In this document: positions 36,975-49,688 of the stretch, piece after piece
Position numbering within the stretch: position 1 is the first letter of the stretch
How the letters are laid out: each line of letters starts with the position of its first letter
Assembly (NCBI GenBank): GCA_963555815.3
Contig: CAUVWX020000002.1
Coordinates: 544,001 to 608,000, forward strand
Reading direction: 5' to 3'
DNA length: 64,000 nt
Source: a bacterium
GTDB taxonomy: Bacteria; UBA8248; JACPRG01; G963555815
Notes under the pieces: model-generated
The model's database searches: none
What the model was told of the DNA's origin: nothing
The model's input: the letters and a program-made list of their open reading frames with translations, nothing else
Made by a program: the position numbers and the translations under genes

Positions 36975-37634
36975 ATGCGAAAGAAGGCTCGGAATTCCTT
37001 CTGCTTCTCCGGGTGCTTTGAGCTCCGGGAGATCCTGGGGAAGGCGGCCTGGGACACGAGGGAGCTCCTGGAATTCTTGGAGGAGGTCCCCGAGGATTCC
37101 GTCTATTACCACACCCACAGCTATTTCCTGCGCCATCCCTATATCGCAGGTTTCTATCCCAATGATTTCGCTCATTGGGCAGCCACTCAGGTGGGAGACA
37201 AGGTGCTGGCGGAGCGTCTGGCCGTTCTCCTTCCCCGCGATTTTCTTGACCTGGAAGGCCTGCGAAACGCCATGCTCAACGTCCTGGACCAACACCTCTC
37301 ACACCTCGACCTCGTCTCGCGGGTCGCCTATGGGGAAGCCTTTCATTTTATGCGGTCCACAATGCGCAAGGTGGATACAGGCCTTGAGGCACGGAATCTG
37401 AAGACCTTCCGGGAGATCCTGGCGGGTGTGGACCTCAGCGTCATCTTTTTCCATACCTTTGAAGCCTGGTTCCGCCACGGGCGCATGGAAGGAGATTTCG
37501 CCATCTGGCTCGATGAGGAGCTGGGCCTGAGGGAGCTCCGCCAGCGGATTGCCCAGTTGGACCCTTACGCCATGAGCCTGGAGGGATACCGAAAGAGGCT
37601 CCTCGCCCTCTGTGACGAATACAGGAAGGCTTGA
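36975..37634 (+). CDS. DUF5752-like protein associated with trehalose synthase TreT
   Basis: Duplicated motif SVYYH...NDFAHW / SVIFFH...GDFAIW; translationally coupled to the treT-like gene. Confidence 0.7.
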   Translation: MRKKARNSFCFSGCFELREILGKAAWDTRELLEFLEEVPEDSVYYHTHSYFLRHPYIAGFYPNDFAHWAATQVGDKVLAERLAVLLPRDFLDLEGLRNAMLNVLDQHLSHLDLVSRVAYGEAFHFMRSTMRKVDTGLEARNLKTFREILAGVDLSVIFFHTFEAWFRHGRMEGDFAIWLDEELGLRELRQRIAQLDPYAMSLEGYRKRLLALCDEYRKA

Positions 37635-37639
37635 CAGGG

Positions 37640-38855
37640 ATGGCCATCGATCTTGAGCAGTATCGGGAGGTGACCCTGCCGGGGACCGTGGATCTCCTCT
37701 ACCGGCTGAGCGATGCCGCCCGGGGAAAAAGCTTCCTCCGCGTGAACTCCACGCGCCATGGAGGCGGGGTGGCGGAGATCCTCCACCGCCTGGTCCCCCT
37801 CCTTCAGGAGCTCGGGATAAAAACCCGTTGGGAGGTCATGGAGGGAGATGAGGAATTATTCTCCGTCACCAAACGCATGCACAATTGCATTCAGGGGGCG
37901 GAGCAGACCATCCCGGAGTCTCTGCTGAAGGCCTACTCGGCATGCAACCGGCGCAACATTGCCCGGATGGATCTGAGGGCCGACATGGTCTGCATCCACG
38001 ACCCTCAGCCGGCGGCCCTCGTGGAGGGACGTCGGGGCCGCGACCGCTGGCTGTGGCGCTGCCACATTGATTGCTCCCGCCCTCAGCGTCGCACATGGAA
38101 TTTCCTCCGCCAGTTCGTCGTCCGCTACGACGCCGCCATCTTCTCCCTGCCCAGATTAGCTCATTCCCTTCCCATCCCTCAATTTCTCGTCTATCCCACC
38201 ATCGACCCCCTCAGCGACAAAAACCGGCCTCTCTCTAAGCGGGAGGTGAACAAGCGGCTTAAGGCGCTCGGCATCCCCCAGGATAAGCCCATCGTCCTTC
38301 AGGTCTCCCGCTTCGACCGTTTTAAGGACCCTATCGGCGTTATCTCGGCCTTCCAGAAGGTCCGAGGGCACACTGACTGCAGACTGGTGCTGGCGGGCGG
38401 AGGAGCCGAGGACGACCCTGAGGGGCGCTCAGGTCCTCACGGAGGTCAAAGAGGCCGCGGGAGAGGATCCTGACATTCACATCCTTGTCCTCCCCCCTTC
38501 GGCTCACCTAGACATCAATGCCCTTCAGCGGGCAGCTGCGCTGGTCCTACAGAAGTCGACCCGAGAAGGGTTCGGCCTCACCGTCACCGAGGCCTTATGG
38601 AATGGAAAACCCGTCATCGGAGGGGCCACGGGGGGGATCATGGTCCAGGTCATACCGGGTGTGACCGGGTATCTCGTCAACTCCGTGGAGGGGGCCGCCT
38701 TCTACATCCGAAAACTCTTGAACGACCCTTCCCTCTGCCGCACCTTGGGAGAAAACGCCAGAGAATACGTTCGAAGTAACTTCCTGATCACCCGTGTCCT
38801 GGGAGACTATCTCATCCTGATGACTTCTTTGAAGCAAAAATCCCGGAAACGTTAG
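37640..38855 (+). CDS. treT: Trehalose synthase TreT-like GT4 glycosyltransferase; +1 frameshift at 38422-38425
   Basis: NSTRHGGGVAEIL, HDPQP, WRCHID, VSRFDRFKD. Removing one G after DDPE restores AQVLTEVK...QKSTREGFGLTVTEALW and joins ORF 38640-38855 (~404 aa). Confidence 0.85.
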
Positions 38856-42453: not shown

Positions 42454-43308
42454 CTAGCGGCTGAGATTTTGGAGGAATCTCTCAGCGTCAGTCGCCTGGG
42501 TGCTTTCGATTCGACGATAGATCTCAAGGGCTTCTATCGCATACAGGATGGCTTGGTCTCTTGAGCCCAGGGCTTTGGCGAGGACGGCAAGGCTGAAGAG
42601 CGTCTCTGCAGCGCCGGGCTCGTCGCCAATCCTCCTTCGAATCTCCAGGCTTTCCCCGTAGAGCCTTTCGGCTTCGTCATAGCGCCCCAGATCCTTCGCA
42701 AGAGTGCTGAGGCCCATGAGGGTCGTCGCAACGCCGGACTCGTCGCCAATCCTCCTTGCGATCTGGATGCTCTGCTGGTAGAAGTCTTCGGCCTCGCCGT
42801 AGTGCACAAGTTTCCAAGCGATTATCCCGAGGCTGTTCAACCTTCTAGCGACGGCCGGTTCGTTGCCAAGTCTCCTCTCAATCGTCAGGCTCTCCTGGTA
42901 AAGCACCCTGGCCTCGAAATAGTTCCCCAGATTCTCGGCGGCAGCGCCTAACTGATTTAGGGCTGCGCTTCTCCCTCTCCCATCTCCCTTCTCCGTGACA
43001 AGGGAAAGGGCGCGTCGTCCCACCTCTTCGGCCTCTTCCCACCTCCCGTGCTTCCCCAGGGCTTCTCCAAGCCCTTGCCAGGCCTCGACAAGGTCCGGAT
43101 CAAGGTCTAGGGCCTGCCTGTAGAGGGAGATGGCCTCATCCCAGCGGTGGCGGCCATGCGCCTCGCGCGCCTTCGTTAGGAGGACACTCTTCTCTTCGTC
43201 AGAGAAGGAAAGGCGAAACCCATCGGGGAGCTCTCCCAACCGGCCCCCTTCAACAGGGAGCGTAGGGAGCGTCAGAAAGAGACTGAGAAAGAAAACGAAA
43301 AGGGGCAT
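42454..43308 (-). CDS. Exported tetratricopeptide repeat protein
   Basis: Hydrophobic N-terminus and 40-aa TPR-type repeats (A..LN.LG...Y.EA...Y.ESL.I.RR.GDE). Confidence 0.85.
   Translation of the reverse strand: MPLFVFFLSLFLTLPTLPVEGGRLGELPDGFRLSFSDEEKSVLLTKAREAHGRHRWDEAISLYRQALDLDPDLVEAWQGLGEALGKHGRWEEAEEVGRRALSLVTEKGDGRGRSAALNQLGAAAENLGNYFEARVLYQESLTIERRLGNEPAVARRLNSLGIIAWKLVHYGEAEDFYQQSIQIARRIGDESGVATTLMGLSTLAKDLGRYDEAERLYGESLEIRRRIGDEPGAAETLFSLAVLAKALGSRDQAILYAIEALEIYRRIESTQATDAERFLQNLSR
42599..42674 (-). repeat. 76-bp block shared (74/76) in inverted orientation with 48979-49054
   Basis: Direct comparison of the two TPR genes shows two mismatches. Confidence 0.85.
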
Positions 43309-45246: not shown

Positions 45247-45278
45247 CGGACAAGGACAACCCTGAGAAACAGGGCCCC

Positions 45279-46466
45279 TCAGCGCTGGGTCACGAGGTAT
45301 TCCGCCGCCCGAAGGGCTGCCTTGGCCCCCTCCCCTGCGGCCACGAGGATCTGTTTGTCCCTCACGTTGGTCACGTCGCCTGCGGCGAAGACCCCCGGGA
45401 CGCCTGTGTTCGTATCGCAGTCAATGAGGATCTCGCCAATTGGATTCGTCTTAAGGGCGTCCAGGGCGAAGCCCGAATTCGGCAGCAGACCGACCTCGAC
45501 AAAGACCCCCCGGACCGAAAGGGTCTTCTCCTCCCACGAACTTTTAGAGCGGACGCGGACCCCCTCCACCTCGTCCTTCCCCAGGATCTCAAGGGTCTCA
45601 TGTCCTGTGAGCTGTTCCATGCGCTTCGTCTGCCTCAGCTTGTTCACGAGAACGTCGTCACCCGTGTAGTCCCCGACGACGATGAGGTAAACCTTTTTGG
45701 CCATGCGGTCGAGCTCCAGGGCCGCCTCTATAGCCGAGTTCCCACCCCCCACAACGGCCACATCAAGGCCTTTGTAAAAGGGGGCGTCGCACGTGGCGCA
45801 AAAGGCCACCCCCTTTCCCATGAGCCGCTCCTCGCCCGGAACCCCTATGCAACGCGGGCGTTTTCCCGAAGCGATGATGAGGGAACGACCCTGATACTCA
45901 TGGCCCGTCTGCGTGCAAACGCGCTTTATCTTGGGGAGTGCCTCCAGGCGGACGACGTTCGCCCCGATGATGCGGTCCATCTCGAACTGCTTTACGTGCT
46001 CGTCGAATTTGTCGATGAGGCTCTGGGCCTCGATGTAGTGGAAGCCCAGGTAGTTTTCGAGTTCAGCCGTGATGTTCAGCTGGCCCCCCACGTCCTTTCC
46101 TAGAACAAGGCATTTCAAGCCCTTCCGGCTGGCGTAAACGGCGGCCGTCATCCCGGCGGGGCCGGCCCCGATGATGATGACGTCATAGAGGGTTTTTAGG
46201 TCCGCCCGCTTCACAAGACCCAGCTTCTCATCGAGGACGCCCGTGGCGTTGAGGGCAGCAAGCTCGTCGTAACCCCCAATGACCTCCTCATCAATGAGGA
46301 TCTGGGGGGTGGTCCGCCCCCTTGTCCGCTCGATCATGGTGTCCCAGCCAGGGGTCCCGCCAAGGACCTCGATCTCCTCCGCCGTCACTTCCTTCTCCTT
46401 GAGCAGCGCCCGCGCTCGATCGCACCAGGGTCAGCCAGGTTGGGAATACATGAGGACTTTCGCCAT
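45279..46466 (-). CDS. Selenoprotein: glutaredoxin (UPWC) fused to TrxB/AhpF-type FAD disulfide reductase, 395 aa, Sec12
   Basis: RBS AGGAGG and ATG at 46466 give MAKVLMYSQPG-TGA(46431-46433)-PWCDRAR, in frame with ORF 45279-46388. Grx motifs TTPQILID and IGGYDEL; reductase motifs GAGPAG, CATCD, GGGNSA, AAGD. Confidence 0.9.
46397..46430 (-). promoter_or_regulatory. Putative bacterial SECIS element
   Basis: AGCG-CGGG-CGCT hairpin (alternative GAGC/GCTC pairing) with loop starting ~19 nt after UGA. Confidence 0.6.
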
Positions 46467-46640
46467 GAGGACCTCCTTTCGGTGGATGAGAGAAACGTGA
46501 TGGGGGATGGATCATCGGCCAGGGAAAGGGATTTAGACCCCTCCCGATTTTCGAAACTCCCCCTCCTCCCCCTTATAATGAAAAGAGATTGAAGAAACCA
46601 TTATAATTAGGGCAAAAATGCCACCGGAGAGAAGGCCATT

Positions 46641-47674: not shown

Positions 47675-48373
47675 ATGGCTGTCGAGCGAAATCACTATCA
47701 GAGAATCCCCCCAGGGCCTCTGTTTGGCTTATGGTCCTGGCGCTATCTCGACCTCCTGAAGATGATCCGTCTCAGGCTGAACCCGCGGATCCATGGCTTC
47801 TATACAAAGTTTCCCACCATTCCCCCCCCCGGCTCCAAATTCCCCGAGGTCGACCTGGAGACGGTGGACGGAGGGAGAATCAACACAAAAGCGCTTCAAG
47901 GGAGGAGGCACTTCGTCCTCCTCACCGGGGCCCTCACCTGACCTCCGACCCGGAGGCAGTTGCCTCTCATGGAGGAGCTGGCAAGAAAGTATAAGGACCG
48001 GGGTGTGGAGGTCTTCCTCATGTACGTCCGGGAGCCCCATGCGAAAGAGCGGGGCTTTCGCCAGTACCGAAAACATGAGAGTTACGACCACAAGATGGAG
48101 TACGCAAAGCTCCTGGTGAAAAAGCACAGCCTCGTCATCCCCTGTCTTGTGGACAGCCTTGATGAAAAGTTGCACCAGATTCTTGGAAACCTTCCAAATC
48201 TTGTTTATGTGGTGGATAAGAAAGGGGAGGTCTTCTACAAAAACACCTGGACAGACGCAGACGCCATTGACGAGATCCTGGCTGAGCTGGTGACGGCGGA
48301 AGACCCATCGCGCCCCGTCCAAAAGACGATGGACAGTCGCCACGTGCCGGGCCGGATCCCCGTTGAGGTGTAG
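47675..48373 (+). CDS. Selenoprotein: iodothyronine deiodinase-like thioredoxin-fold protein, 232 aa, Sec89
   Basis: ORFs 47675-47941 and 47960-48373 are one frame separated only by TGA at 47939-47941: FVLLTGALT-U-PPTRRQLP...YKDRGVEVFLMYVREPH...DSLD...GNLPNLVYVV. Confidence 0.88.
47942..47975 (+). promoter_or_regulatory. Putative bacterial SECIS element
   Basis: Lower stem CCTCC/GGAGG, upper stem GAGGC-AGTT-GCCTC, loop at +17 to +20 from UGA. Confidence 0.7.
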
Positions 48374-48512
48374 GTCCGGGATGAGCGGCCCTCCCACACC
48401 ATCCGGCCCCAGAAAGTTCTTGTCTGAATGTTCTCTTGGATAGTACTATTTAGCCCTTGATAGGGATCCAGTGAAAGGGGCACAACCGACCCCTCTTTTC
48501 GGGAGAACACCC

Positions 48513-49688
48513 ATGATCCTCGCCAGGATATCTCTTCTCGCCCTCTTTTTCCCTCTTCTCCTCGTCCTCCCAGCCGAGGGGGTTCGGCAGGTCTCTGCTG
48601 TCTTTCTTAAGAACCAAGCCGGGCCTGAAAGCGGTGCGCGGGACCATCGGAAAGGGCTCGACCCGGAGCTTCTTTCCTTCTTTGGCCCCTCTGATGAAGA
48701 GAAGAATGCCATCCTAACGAAGGCGCACGAGGCTCATAACAGTCAGCTTTGGGATGAGGCCGTCTCTCTCTACCGCCAGGTCATTGCCCTCGACTCGGAC
48801 GACGCCGAGGCCTGGCAAGGGCTTGGGATCGCACTTCAACACCAGGAAATATGGGGCGAGGCACAGGACGCTGGGAAGCAGGCCCTTTCCATTTTCACGG
48901 AGCGCGGAGACGAGAAGGGGAGAGGGGAGGTCCTCTACAACCTCGGCAACATCTCTGAGGACCGCGGGCACCATGACCAAGCCGAAAGGCTCTACGGGGA
49001 AAGCCTGGAGATTCAAAGGAGGATTGGCGACGAGCCCGGCGCCGCAGAGACGCTGAACAACCTGGGAATTCTCGCTGGGATCCAGGAGCGCTATGTCGAG
49101 GCCGAGACGCTCTTCCAGGAGAGGCTGGAGATCCAGAGGAAACTCGGCGACGAGGCCGGCATCTCAGAGACGCTGTACAACCTGGGAGTGGTCGCCGAGA
49201 GGGAAGCACGCTACGACAAGGCCAAAGAGCTCTACCATGAGGGCCTGGAGATTGAAAGGAAGCTTGGCGATGAGGCCGGCTTGGCGACGACGCTGAATAA
49301 CCTCGGCGATGTTGCCGCGAGACAAGAACAGTACGAAGAGGCCAATGGGTTCTTTCAGGAGAGCCTGGAGATTCAAAGGAAACTGGGAGATGAGTCGGGG
49401 CTCGTCGTGACGCTGTTCAACCTGGGAGTGGTGGCCGAGAACCGCGAGCAGAGCGGAGAGGCCATGGGGTTGTACCAGGAGGCCTTAGAGATCGGCAGGA
49501 AGCTCAACGATGAACCCCTCGTCGGGCAGACTCTATTCTCCCTCGCCCTCCTCGCTGAGGCTGAGGGCTCAAGGGACGAGGCCGTCGAATACGCAAAAGA
49601 GGCCCATGAGATATTCGGCAAGATAAAGAGCCCATTGGAAGTGAGAACCCGAAACTTCCTGCGAATCCTGGGATGGCCCGTTCCGTAG
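48513..49688 (+). CDS. Exported tetratricopeptide repeat protein (paralog of 42454-43308)
   Basis: Signal peptide MILARISLLALFFPLLLVLPAEG, shared SDEEK..LTKA.EAH...WDEA.SLYRQ segment, 40-aa TPR repeats. Confidence 0.85.
   Translation: MILARISLLALFFPLLLVLPAEGVRQVSAVFLKNQAGPESGARDHRKGLDPELLSFFGPSDEEKNAILTKAHEAHNSQLWDEAVSLYRQVIALDSDDAEAWQGLGIALQHQEIWGEAQDAGKQALSIFTERGDEKGRGEVLYNLGNISEDRGHHDQAERLYGESLEIQRRIGDEPGAAETLNNLGILAGIQERYVEAETLFQERLEIQRKLGDEAGISETLYNLGVVAEREARYDKAKELYHEGLEIERKLGDEAGLATTLNNLGDVAARQEQYEEANGFFQESLEIQRKLGDESGLVVTLFNLGVVAENREQSGEAMGLYQEALEIGRKLNDEPLVGQTLFSLALLAEAEGSRDEAVEYAKEAHEIFGKIKSPLEVRTRNFLRILGWPVP
48979..49054 (+). repeat. 76-bp block shared (74/76) in inverted orientation with 42599-42674
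   Basis: Direct sequence comparison. Confidence 0.85.

Follow-up and report, generated by a model that had tools for sequence, protein, structure and literature searches.

A probable selenoprotein that joins a Grx3-type glutaredoxin domain to an AhpF-core-like reductase

The product of the gene described here is very likely a glutaredoxin that contains selenium and is fused to the flavin enzyme predicted to recharge it. The gene lies on the minus strand of the window (the whole 64,000-nt stretch of DNA that was analysed). Its reading frame and motifs, the exchange of TGA and TGC or TGT (TGY) across orthologues, and the selenocysteine (Sec) machinery of the host can all be observed directly. 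The predicted product carries a Grx3-type domain with the site U12-P-W-C15, a short linker and a reductase that resembles the core of AhpF, and we consider it likely that this selenoprotein works as a glutathione-independent relay within one chain.

Reading frame and the selenocysteine codon

A preliminary description of this DNA had placed a ribosome-binding site and an ATG 78 nt upstream of the open reading frame called by program. Both are present, and the called start, GTG 46388, lies exactly 78 nt downstream of ATG 46466. Translation from this ATG with TGA read as U gives MAKVLMYSQPG-U-PWC…, and the second TGA in the frame (45281-45279) is its stop. The motifs listed earlier (YSQPG-TGA-PWC, TTPQILID, IGGYDEL, CATCD and LIVVGDYTGD) all fall within this minus-strand frame of 395 aa; a plus-strand reading of 45279..46466 was rejected, the coding strand being the minus strand. 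The gene and its signals comprise the following features:

45279..46466, minus strand: full coding sequence, 395 aa with Sec12 (Grx–low-Mr disulfide reductase fusion), from translation with TGA = U and from Cys orthologues
46471..46478, minus strand: Shine-Dalgarno sequence AAGGAGGT, with its AGGAGG core 5 nt before the ATG, from the sequence
46431..46433, minus strand: in-frame TGA, codon 12, predicted selenocysteine of U-P-W-C, from the frame, orthologue codons and host Sec machinery
46401..46417, minus strand: candidate bacterial SECIS (4-bp stem, bulged U, 2 bp, G-first loop), from comparison with relatives
46386..46388, minus strand: GTG27, start of the truncated called ORF, with its own SD-like AAGGAG upstream
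45262..45282, minus strand: terminator-like hairpin over the stop codon, a consensus match only

Codon 12 almost certainly encodes selenocysteine. The TGA aligns with the catalytic Cys codon of relatives, in agreement with the earlier placement of Sec in the attacking position of the glutaredoxin site. Tabulation of Cys versus Sec at position 12, which had been proposed as a check, yields TGA in 23 and TGC or TGT in 6 of the 29 resolved loci of the clade, with 1 further locus unresolved and neither TAA nor TAG at any of the 29. By genome, same-clade orthologues carry TGA in three of six cases and TGY in the other three; the metagenome loci contribute 20 TGA and 3 TGY among 23 resolved (1 unresolved). 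These counts, like those for the hairpin below, leave out repeat loci (L036, L048-L052), unfused genes (L081, L083, L117), a locus of another clade (L084) and a frameshifted one (L066), and the single-protein scan of genome contigs reached, among fused forms, only the same-genus genome. A Cys codon in sequencing reads had been named earlier as evidence against Sec; contigs of public runs from three studies span the codon with up to 10 differences elsewhere, and all show TGA unchanged, with no other letter in any of them (one may represent the window's own source). In the one public RNA run that holds part of the stretch, no contig runs across the fusion gene.

The database record of the family follows the same division. 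Full-length Cys orthologues measure 390-398 aa at 63-68% identity, and 58 of the 76 clade members are N-truncated proteins, 42 of them at exactly 375 aa, with a CPxC site in none of the truncated ones. Where a truncated protein is at least 97% identical to an analysed locus (n = 19), that locus has TGA in 17 cases and TGT in 1, with 1 locus unresolved. Labels on relatives suggest a UBA8248/Tectomicrobia-like lineage for the host. The host genome (G000; 2.08 Mb, 95.7% complete) contains tRNA-Sec (selC) as well as selA, selB and selD over cut-off, and its selD carries an in-frame TGA of its own. TGA-bearing redoxins make up 6 of the 15 PF00578 matches in the host and 3 of the 4 PF00462 matches, the fusion gene included. 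Since selA is found in all five relatives checked, including three with Cys at codon 12, the Cys forms were not forced by loss of the Sec machinery.

That the TGA might be a true stop, with only the 369-aa product from GTG27 being made and the glutaredoxin part pseudogenised, is extremely improbable. The SD-like AAGGAG ahead of GTG27 and the weakness of the hairpin in this gene would fit such a reading, but it does not sit well with a codon 12 that is TGA or TGY at 29 of 29 loci, with codons 1-26 that are conserved behind a strong ribosome-binding site in relatives, or with a host that combines full Sec machinery with many other TGA-redoxins. The product from GTG27 would be devoid of the CPxC-type site, and the AAGGAG suggests that this Grx-dead form may additionally be made beside the selenoprotein.

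Other genes of the host and of the window deserve mention in their own right. On the plus strand of the window at 47675-48373, reading through an in-frame TGA links called ORFs of 88 and 137 aa to give a deiodinase-like redoxin of 232 aa (GALT-U-PPT), and a hairpin follows the UGA at 16 nt; a paralogue (GSIT-U-PPS) is found in the host genome at C1:251247-251678. A cluster of TlpA/Prx-like redoxins with a Sec-Grx-like gene (HVPD-U-SGC) is located at C1:572630-582598 and other sites of that genome; a search of a few families yielded at least 10 redox genes with a TGA there. The window also includes a TreT-like trehalose glycosyltransferase that seems split (37631-38855, plus strand; ORFs of 280 and 71 aa) and adjoins a DUF5752 gene, and, by eye, a pair of similar TPR-like repeat proteins separated by about 5 kb (42454-43308, plus strand, and 48471-49688, minus strand).

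The SECIS-like hairpin and the history of the family

The SECIS-like hairpin of the preliminary description stands in part. Its position, its G-first loop and a register shared with Sec relatives hold, but it is not the minimum free energy (MFE) fold (z of about +1.4), and 559 of 2000 synonymous recodings of this gene fold as well. The hairpin (46417-46401; -5.8 kcal/mol) places its loop 19 nt after the UGA, has a pair probability of 0.002 in a 64-nt context, and goes unseen in MFE folding and an Rfam search of this gene, which gave no SECIS. In the same control, again with 2000 recodings each, an equally good fold arose 656 times for the relative L053, 18 times for L011 and 113 times for L118, and only the hairpins of the last two stand out. 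For the present gene, comparison with relatives weakly suggests that the hairpin may serve as a SECIS.

In Sec forms, the segment 14-30 nt downstream of the UGA typically contains a 7-bp hairpin whose loop begins with G. Every one of its seven pairs is kept by 13 of the 15 distinct Sec sequences versus one of six Cys sequences, the Ala codon within the stem is GCA in the 13 intact Sec forms and GCC in five of the six Cys forms, and 95% of cells are paired in the conserved register versus 18-55% in slid registers; these counts overstate independence because the aligned rows are kin. Two-sided compensatory change occurs at none of the hairpin pairs in the alignment. The top of the hairpin is rearranged in this gene and in its closest relative, L118 (4 bp, bulged U, 2 bp), and the loop distance resembles that of hairpins after other host TGA codons, which is 16-20 nt for most. 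The Mann-Whitney comparison of hairpin energy between Sec and Cys forms (P 0.026) is given no weight, because the compared sequences are related and their mean energies lie 0.5 kcal/mol apart. One Cys (TGT) orthologue, L007 (G002:C369), retains a perfect 7-bp SECIS-like hairpin, which suggests a recent change from Sec to Cys.

A quick tree of 109 reductase domains with SH-aLRT supports joins the fused reductases into one clade (99) with two arms, apart from the HRR-type TrxBs (99). This gene and relatives with the label Nitrospinota make up the first arm (100). The second comprises proteins labelled Deltaproteobacteria or Pseudomonadota, with Cys in 44 of 44 among the matches listed, a count in which N-truncated forms would rank lower and may be missed. 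The fused clade is joined to the group that contains AhpF with a support of 84 only. Within the first arm, this gene and L011, both with TGA, branch first and the Cys forms are dispersed among those with TGA, a pattern that suggests a single gain of Sec followed by several reversions to Cys.

The fusion itself is not rare, and Cys versions are widespread. Inspection by eye of 22 of the best 150 representatives (50% identity) suggested about 12 fusions of a single redoxin with a reductase, labelled at their source as AhpF or FAD-dependent oxidoreductase. At three loci (L081, L083, L117) separate Grx and reductase genes stand side by side. A split counterpart of the fusion was observed at L148 (G002:C164:5160-6331), where a separate Sec-Grx-like gene (HQPG-U-GDC) lies directly upstream of a non-HRR TrxB-like gene; the fused copy of the same genome has Cys. 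By eye, related AhpF-core reductases (P0145, P0203, P0193, P0212) carry other modules, namely a 2Fe-2S ferredoxin at the C-terminus, a YHS-like domain at the N-terminus, and helical extensions at the C-terminus. L010/L036 (G001) are frameshifted near aa 250 and 312 and L011 (G014) near aa 52; close database proteins show no such shifts, which are probably assembly errors.

Domain architecture, known systems and the electron donor

The protein is divided into the following parts, all on the minus strand:

46221..46466, minus strand: Grx3-type domain, aa 1-82 (UPWC, TTP cis-Pro loop, GGYDE), from TIGR02181, PF00462 and pLDDT 84-92
46191..46220, minus strand: linker of about 10 aa (aa 83-92), predicted flexible, from pLDDT 68 for aa 81-90
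45282..46190, minus strand: low-Mr thioredoxin-reductase/AhpF-core flavoprotein, aa 93-395, from GAGPAG, ASG, GKG and GVFAAGD
45786..45800, minus strand: redox-active CATCD (C223/C226), with C223, C226 and D227 invariant in 49 aligned sequences
45726..45749, minus strand: NAD(P)H pyrophosphate motif GGGNSAIE, aa 240-247, intact, from the sequence and comparison with relatives
45657..45686, minus strand: 2'-phosphate site LIVVGDYTGD, aa 261-270, with neither the His/Arg of HRRxxxR nor a Glu as in AhpF LLEF

The assignment of the first domain to the Grx3 type, made earlier from its TTP and GGYDE features, is supported by the Pfam glutaredoxin model (PF00462, aa 4-63, 48.8 bits against a cut-off of 22.9) and by the best score among glutaredoxin models, that of TIGR02181, which at 81.2 bits for the isolated domain falls just below its cut-off of 90. 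The YruB-like model TIGR02196 reaches 52 bits, and the UXX-star models also remain below cut-off (NF041212, 40.4 versus 66; NF041114, 27.1 versus 72). The fusion to a low-Mr reductase is likewise confirmed, with Pyr_redox_2 at aa 94-380 and the AhpF core as its closest relation. The reductase core of about 305 aa, with the C-terminus YLVTQR, retains the FAD motifs, CxxC, GKG and GGGxxAxE of canonical TrxB, and its best PDB sequence match is AhpF (1hyu, 3e-67), above TrxB. Among the best 25 of 105 NCBIfam matches no model exceeds its cut-off; the AhpF model TIGR03140 scores 319.6 versus 502.9. Structure prediction, proposed earlier as a check, gave an AlphaFold monomer model (pLDDT 77.9, pTM 0.66) with a C-terminal part below pLDDT 55 and without visible domain docking, and a fold search with this model ranked 4xvg, 4o5q and 1hyu first to third, AhpF being the top match.

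The protein belongs to none of AhpF, canonical TrxB, FFTR/TRi, TGR and UXX-star, since in each comparison a tested feature departs from that of the system. AhpF (PDB 1hyu, 4o5q, 1fl2), the best match in both sequence and fold, shares the N-terminal redoxin on a low-Mr TrxR core and the lack of HRR. However, AhpF has a double-Trx N-terminal domain of about 200 aa in a chain of 521 aa, CPHCD with a Glu at the NADH site and an ahpC partner that is usually adjacent, whereas here one 82-aa Grx heads a chain of 395 aa with CATCD, Val263 and Sec, and ahpC is found neither in the host nor beside the gene. Canonical NADPH TrxB combines HRRxxxR with a TIGR01292 score over cut-off; the present protein reads VVGDYTG and scores 291.4 versus 343.45. 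In FFTR/TRi enzymes GGGxxAxE is lost or degenerate, whereas GGGNSAIE is intact here.

Another parallel is the set of proteins Cp34, Cp9 and Cp20 of Clostridium pasteurianum, reportedly described by Reynolds, Meyer and Poole in 2002. There, a small glutaredoxin homologue with CP[YW]C carries electrons for an NADH-type TrxR-like protein, according to the available part of the source (PMC3720550). As far as that source goes, the likeness lies in the pairing of a TrxR-like reductase with a small Grx homologue, but Cp34 and Cp9 are two chains, whereas here there is one chain with Sec and no linked peroxiredoxin gene; unlike Cp9, the redoxin is also more Grx3-like (TIGR02181, 81 bits) than YruB-like (TIGR02196, 52 bits). 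A bacterial Sec-glutaredoxin is said to have been described by Kim et al. in 2011. The UxxC family of PF00462 is an experimentally verified selenoprotein family in Table 1 of PMC13188914, and it shares the UxxC in a Grx fold with our protein; in that table it is catalogued as the Grx domain alone, without a low-Mr reductase.

With regard to the electron donor, the site residues make NADH the somewhat favoured candidate, whereas NADPH or dual use appears rather doubtful and ferredoxin or another donor quite unlikely. The earlier statement that the NADPH-binding HRR motif is absent holds for LIVVGDYTGD (aa 261-270) and extends to all 120 fused proteins examined. The call for NADH rests on absence, as the acidic residue of AhpF is missing too, its place being taken by Val263. 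In the excerpts available, GGGxxAxE and HRRDxxR are the motifs defined for NAD(P)H binding (PMC5627308), and a Thermoplasma enzyme without HRR uses NADH (PMC6262447).

The same Sec relay could instead run on NADPH or on both nucleotides if the Arg that remains in relatives binds the 2'-phosphate, which we hold to be unlikely. An Arg at the TrxB R176 position is kept in 72 of 76 close relatives, and an AhpF-type Glu is missing, both of which would favour this reading; however, the present protein has Val at that position, the host already encodes a separate HRR-type TrxB, and in DvTRi one basic residue at the 2'-phosphate place is described as insufficient for NADPH (PMC5627308, as far as available). 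Loss of every Arg at this site is a trait of this small lineage and not of the family. A reductase independent of pyridine nucleotides and fed by ferredoxin or flavodoxin, as in FFTR/TRi enzymes, seems distinctly improbable. HRRxxxR is indeed missing throughout the fused proteins examined, and such enzymes do exist, but GGGxxAxE is intact here and in nearly all relatives, whereas the available parts of the sources describe a ferredoxin-type TrxB1 that has neither motif and an NAD(P)H-independent TRi in which the first motif, GGGxxAxE, is degenerate (PMC10880999; PMC5627308). Of the alternatives named in the preliminary description, an NADH- or ferredoxin-linked reductase, the first hence remains plausible and the second is weakened by the intact GGGNSAIE. 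In the PDB search, the clostridial-type short reductases 6gnc, 6gna and 6gnd, which we take to be FFTRs, stand near the bottom of 45 matches.

The predicted relay and its cellular context

The relay that we consider likely is drawn from the chemistry of TrxB and AhpF. A homodimer would take hydride from NAD(P)H, in this lineage most likely NADH, onto FAD, whose electrons would pass to C223/C226 of CATC. After the usual domain rotation, C223/C226 would reduce the Se-S bond between U12 and C15 of the tethered Grx domain, and the resulting selenolate might then attack protein disulfides or oxidised thiol/selenol peroxidases without glutathione. Such a relay would run beside the separate canonical NADPH TrxB/TrxA pair of the host and act as a mini-AhpF, or as a fused form of Cp34–Cp9 of C. 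pasteurianum.

The thiol inventory of the host bears on this reading. No gshA (PF04262, PF04107) or gshB gene was detected in the five genomes searched, G000 and four of its relatives, apart from one weak sub-cut-off gshB-family match in G014, and neither glutathione reductase (gor) nor bshC gave a match over cut-off in any of seven family genomes; controls for these searches were positive in E. coli or B. subtilis. The host encodes a canonical TrxB (HRRDQLR), one thioredoxin (WCAPC), a stand-alone Grx sharing 51% identity with the fused domain, a BCP/AhpE-like peroxidase at C1:1255311-1255679 and a ribonucleotide reductase that we read as class II (NrdJ). MsrA was not found in G000, so the precedent of Sec-Grx serving with Sec-MsrA does not transfer to this host.

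The preliminary description had likened the chain to AhpF or to thioredoxin-glutathione reductase (TGR). The likeness to AhpF as a single-chain relay is the best inference, whereas that to TGR, and with it the rationale for a GSSG assay, is weakened: searches of the 95.7%-complete host genome and of relatives revealed no gshA, gshB or glutathione reductase over cut-off, and the reductase belongs to the low-Mr type. TGR is a high-Mr enzyme that serves glutathione; its Sec lies in a GCUG tail at the C-terminus, and its Grx has Cys. Like mammalian TrxR it includes selenium in its relay, and it is also a Grx and flavoreductase in one chain, but the Sec of the present protein belongs to the Grx domain, its core is of low Mr, and glutathione seems to be missing from the host; the likeness is at most convergent. 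A TGR-like enzyme whose Grx domain handles glutathione or another low-molecular-weight thiol, by GSSG reduction or deglutathionylation, is therefore very improbable, even though the TTP and GGYDE features are kept and TIGR02181 is the best-scoring Grx model, since neither gshA (two families) nor gshB was found in 5 of 5 genomes, gor and bshC fell short of cut-off in 7 of 7, and the scaffold is low-Mr.

For the glutathione-independent relay, our best guess at a substrate is the BCP/AhpE-type peroxidase of the host along with its many Sec/Cys Prx-like redoxins, class II ribonucleotide reductase coming second. AhpC was rejected as a substrate: AhpC-type Prx was not found in the host (PF10417 is absent from G000), and with it the analogy of an AhpC partner fails. 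Among 35 fused-family loci (1.3-9 kb, some cut) none contains ahpC, and strong ahpC matches occur in 10 metagenome loci of the AhpF group. The fusion gene has no co-oriented upstream neighbour close by, neighbours vary among loci, and none of the loci examined shows a conserved redox neighbour that hints at the substrate. At about a dozen metagenome loci (L057, L059, L062-L064, L113 and others) the fusion is divergent from a lipoprotein-like gene, LpoB-like by eye.

Both parts of this protein, their partnership and the Sec-glutaredoxin are already known. Table 1 of the 2026 review PMC13188914, the part of that paper available, includes Sec-Grx and a Sec-containing homologue of the N-terminal domain of AhpF among its 119 selenoprotein families, and has no entry for a Grx-reductase fusion; a Sec form of it is likewise absent from the accessible portions of PMC9312934 and PMC2398784. 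A literature search, with subscription journals mostly outside its reach, found no paper describing the fusion. BSepDB, in the part available, attributes 48-54 selenoproteins to UBA8248/Nitrospinota MAGs (PMC13326102); a term search of its supplement did not find the fusion, and the database itself may list these genes under 'Grx'. We regard the Sec fusion as probably an uncatalogued architecture made from known parts, and as probably a real, functional selenoprotein.

The fusion adds to the bacterial selenoproteome a chain of the low-Mr TrxR family that carries its own Sec, and it accounts for the systematic truncation of a set of database entries (58 of the 76 clade proteins). Natural Sec and Cys orthologues with 63-68% identity are interleaved on the tree, and this, in a self-contained enzyme, offers a one-protein assay of the benefit of Sec over Cys as well as an assay of Grx-fold recharging in glutathione-free cells. 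We further speculate, as a rather unlikely extension, that a bacterial low-Mr TrxR independently came to carry a selenolate on a mobile arm of its own, as the mammalian enzyme does, and became the recharger of the large selenoproteome of this lineage; in this scenario Sec arose a single time at the base of the clade and gave way to Cys on several occasions, in one case with the SECIS left intact. If true, the enzyme would provide broad glutathione-free reducing power towards peroxides, selenite or Se-S bonds, and might have a dedicated role in recharging the selenoproteome, including the supply of selenide to SelD.
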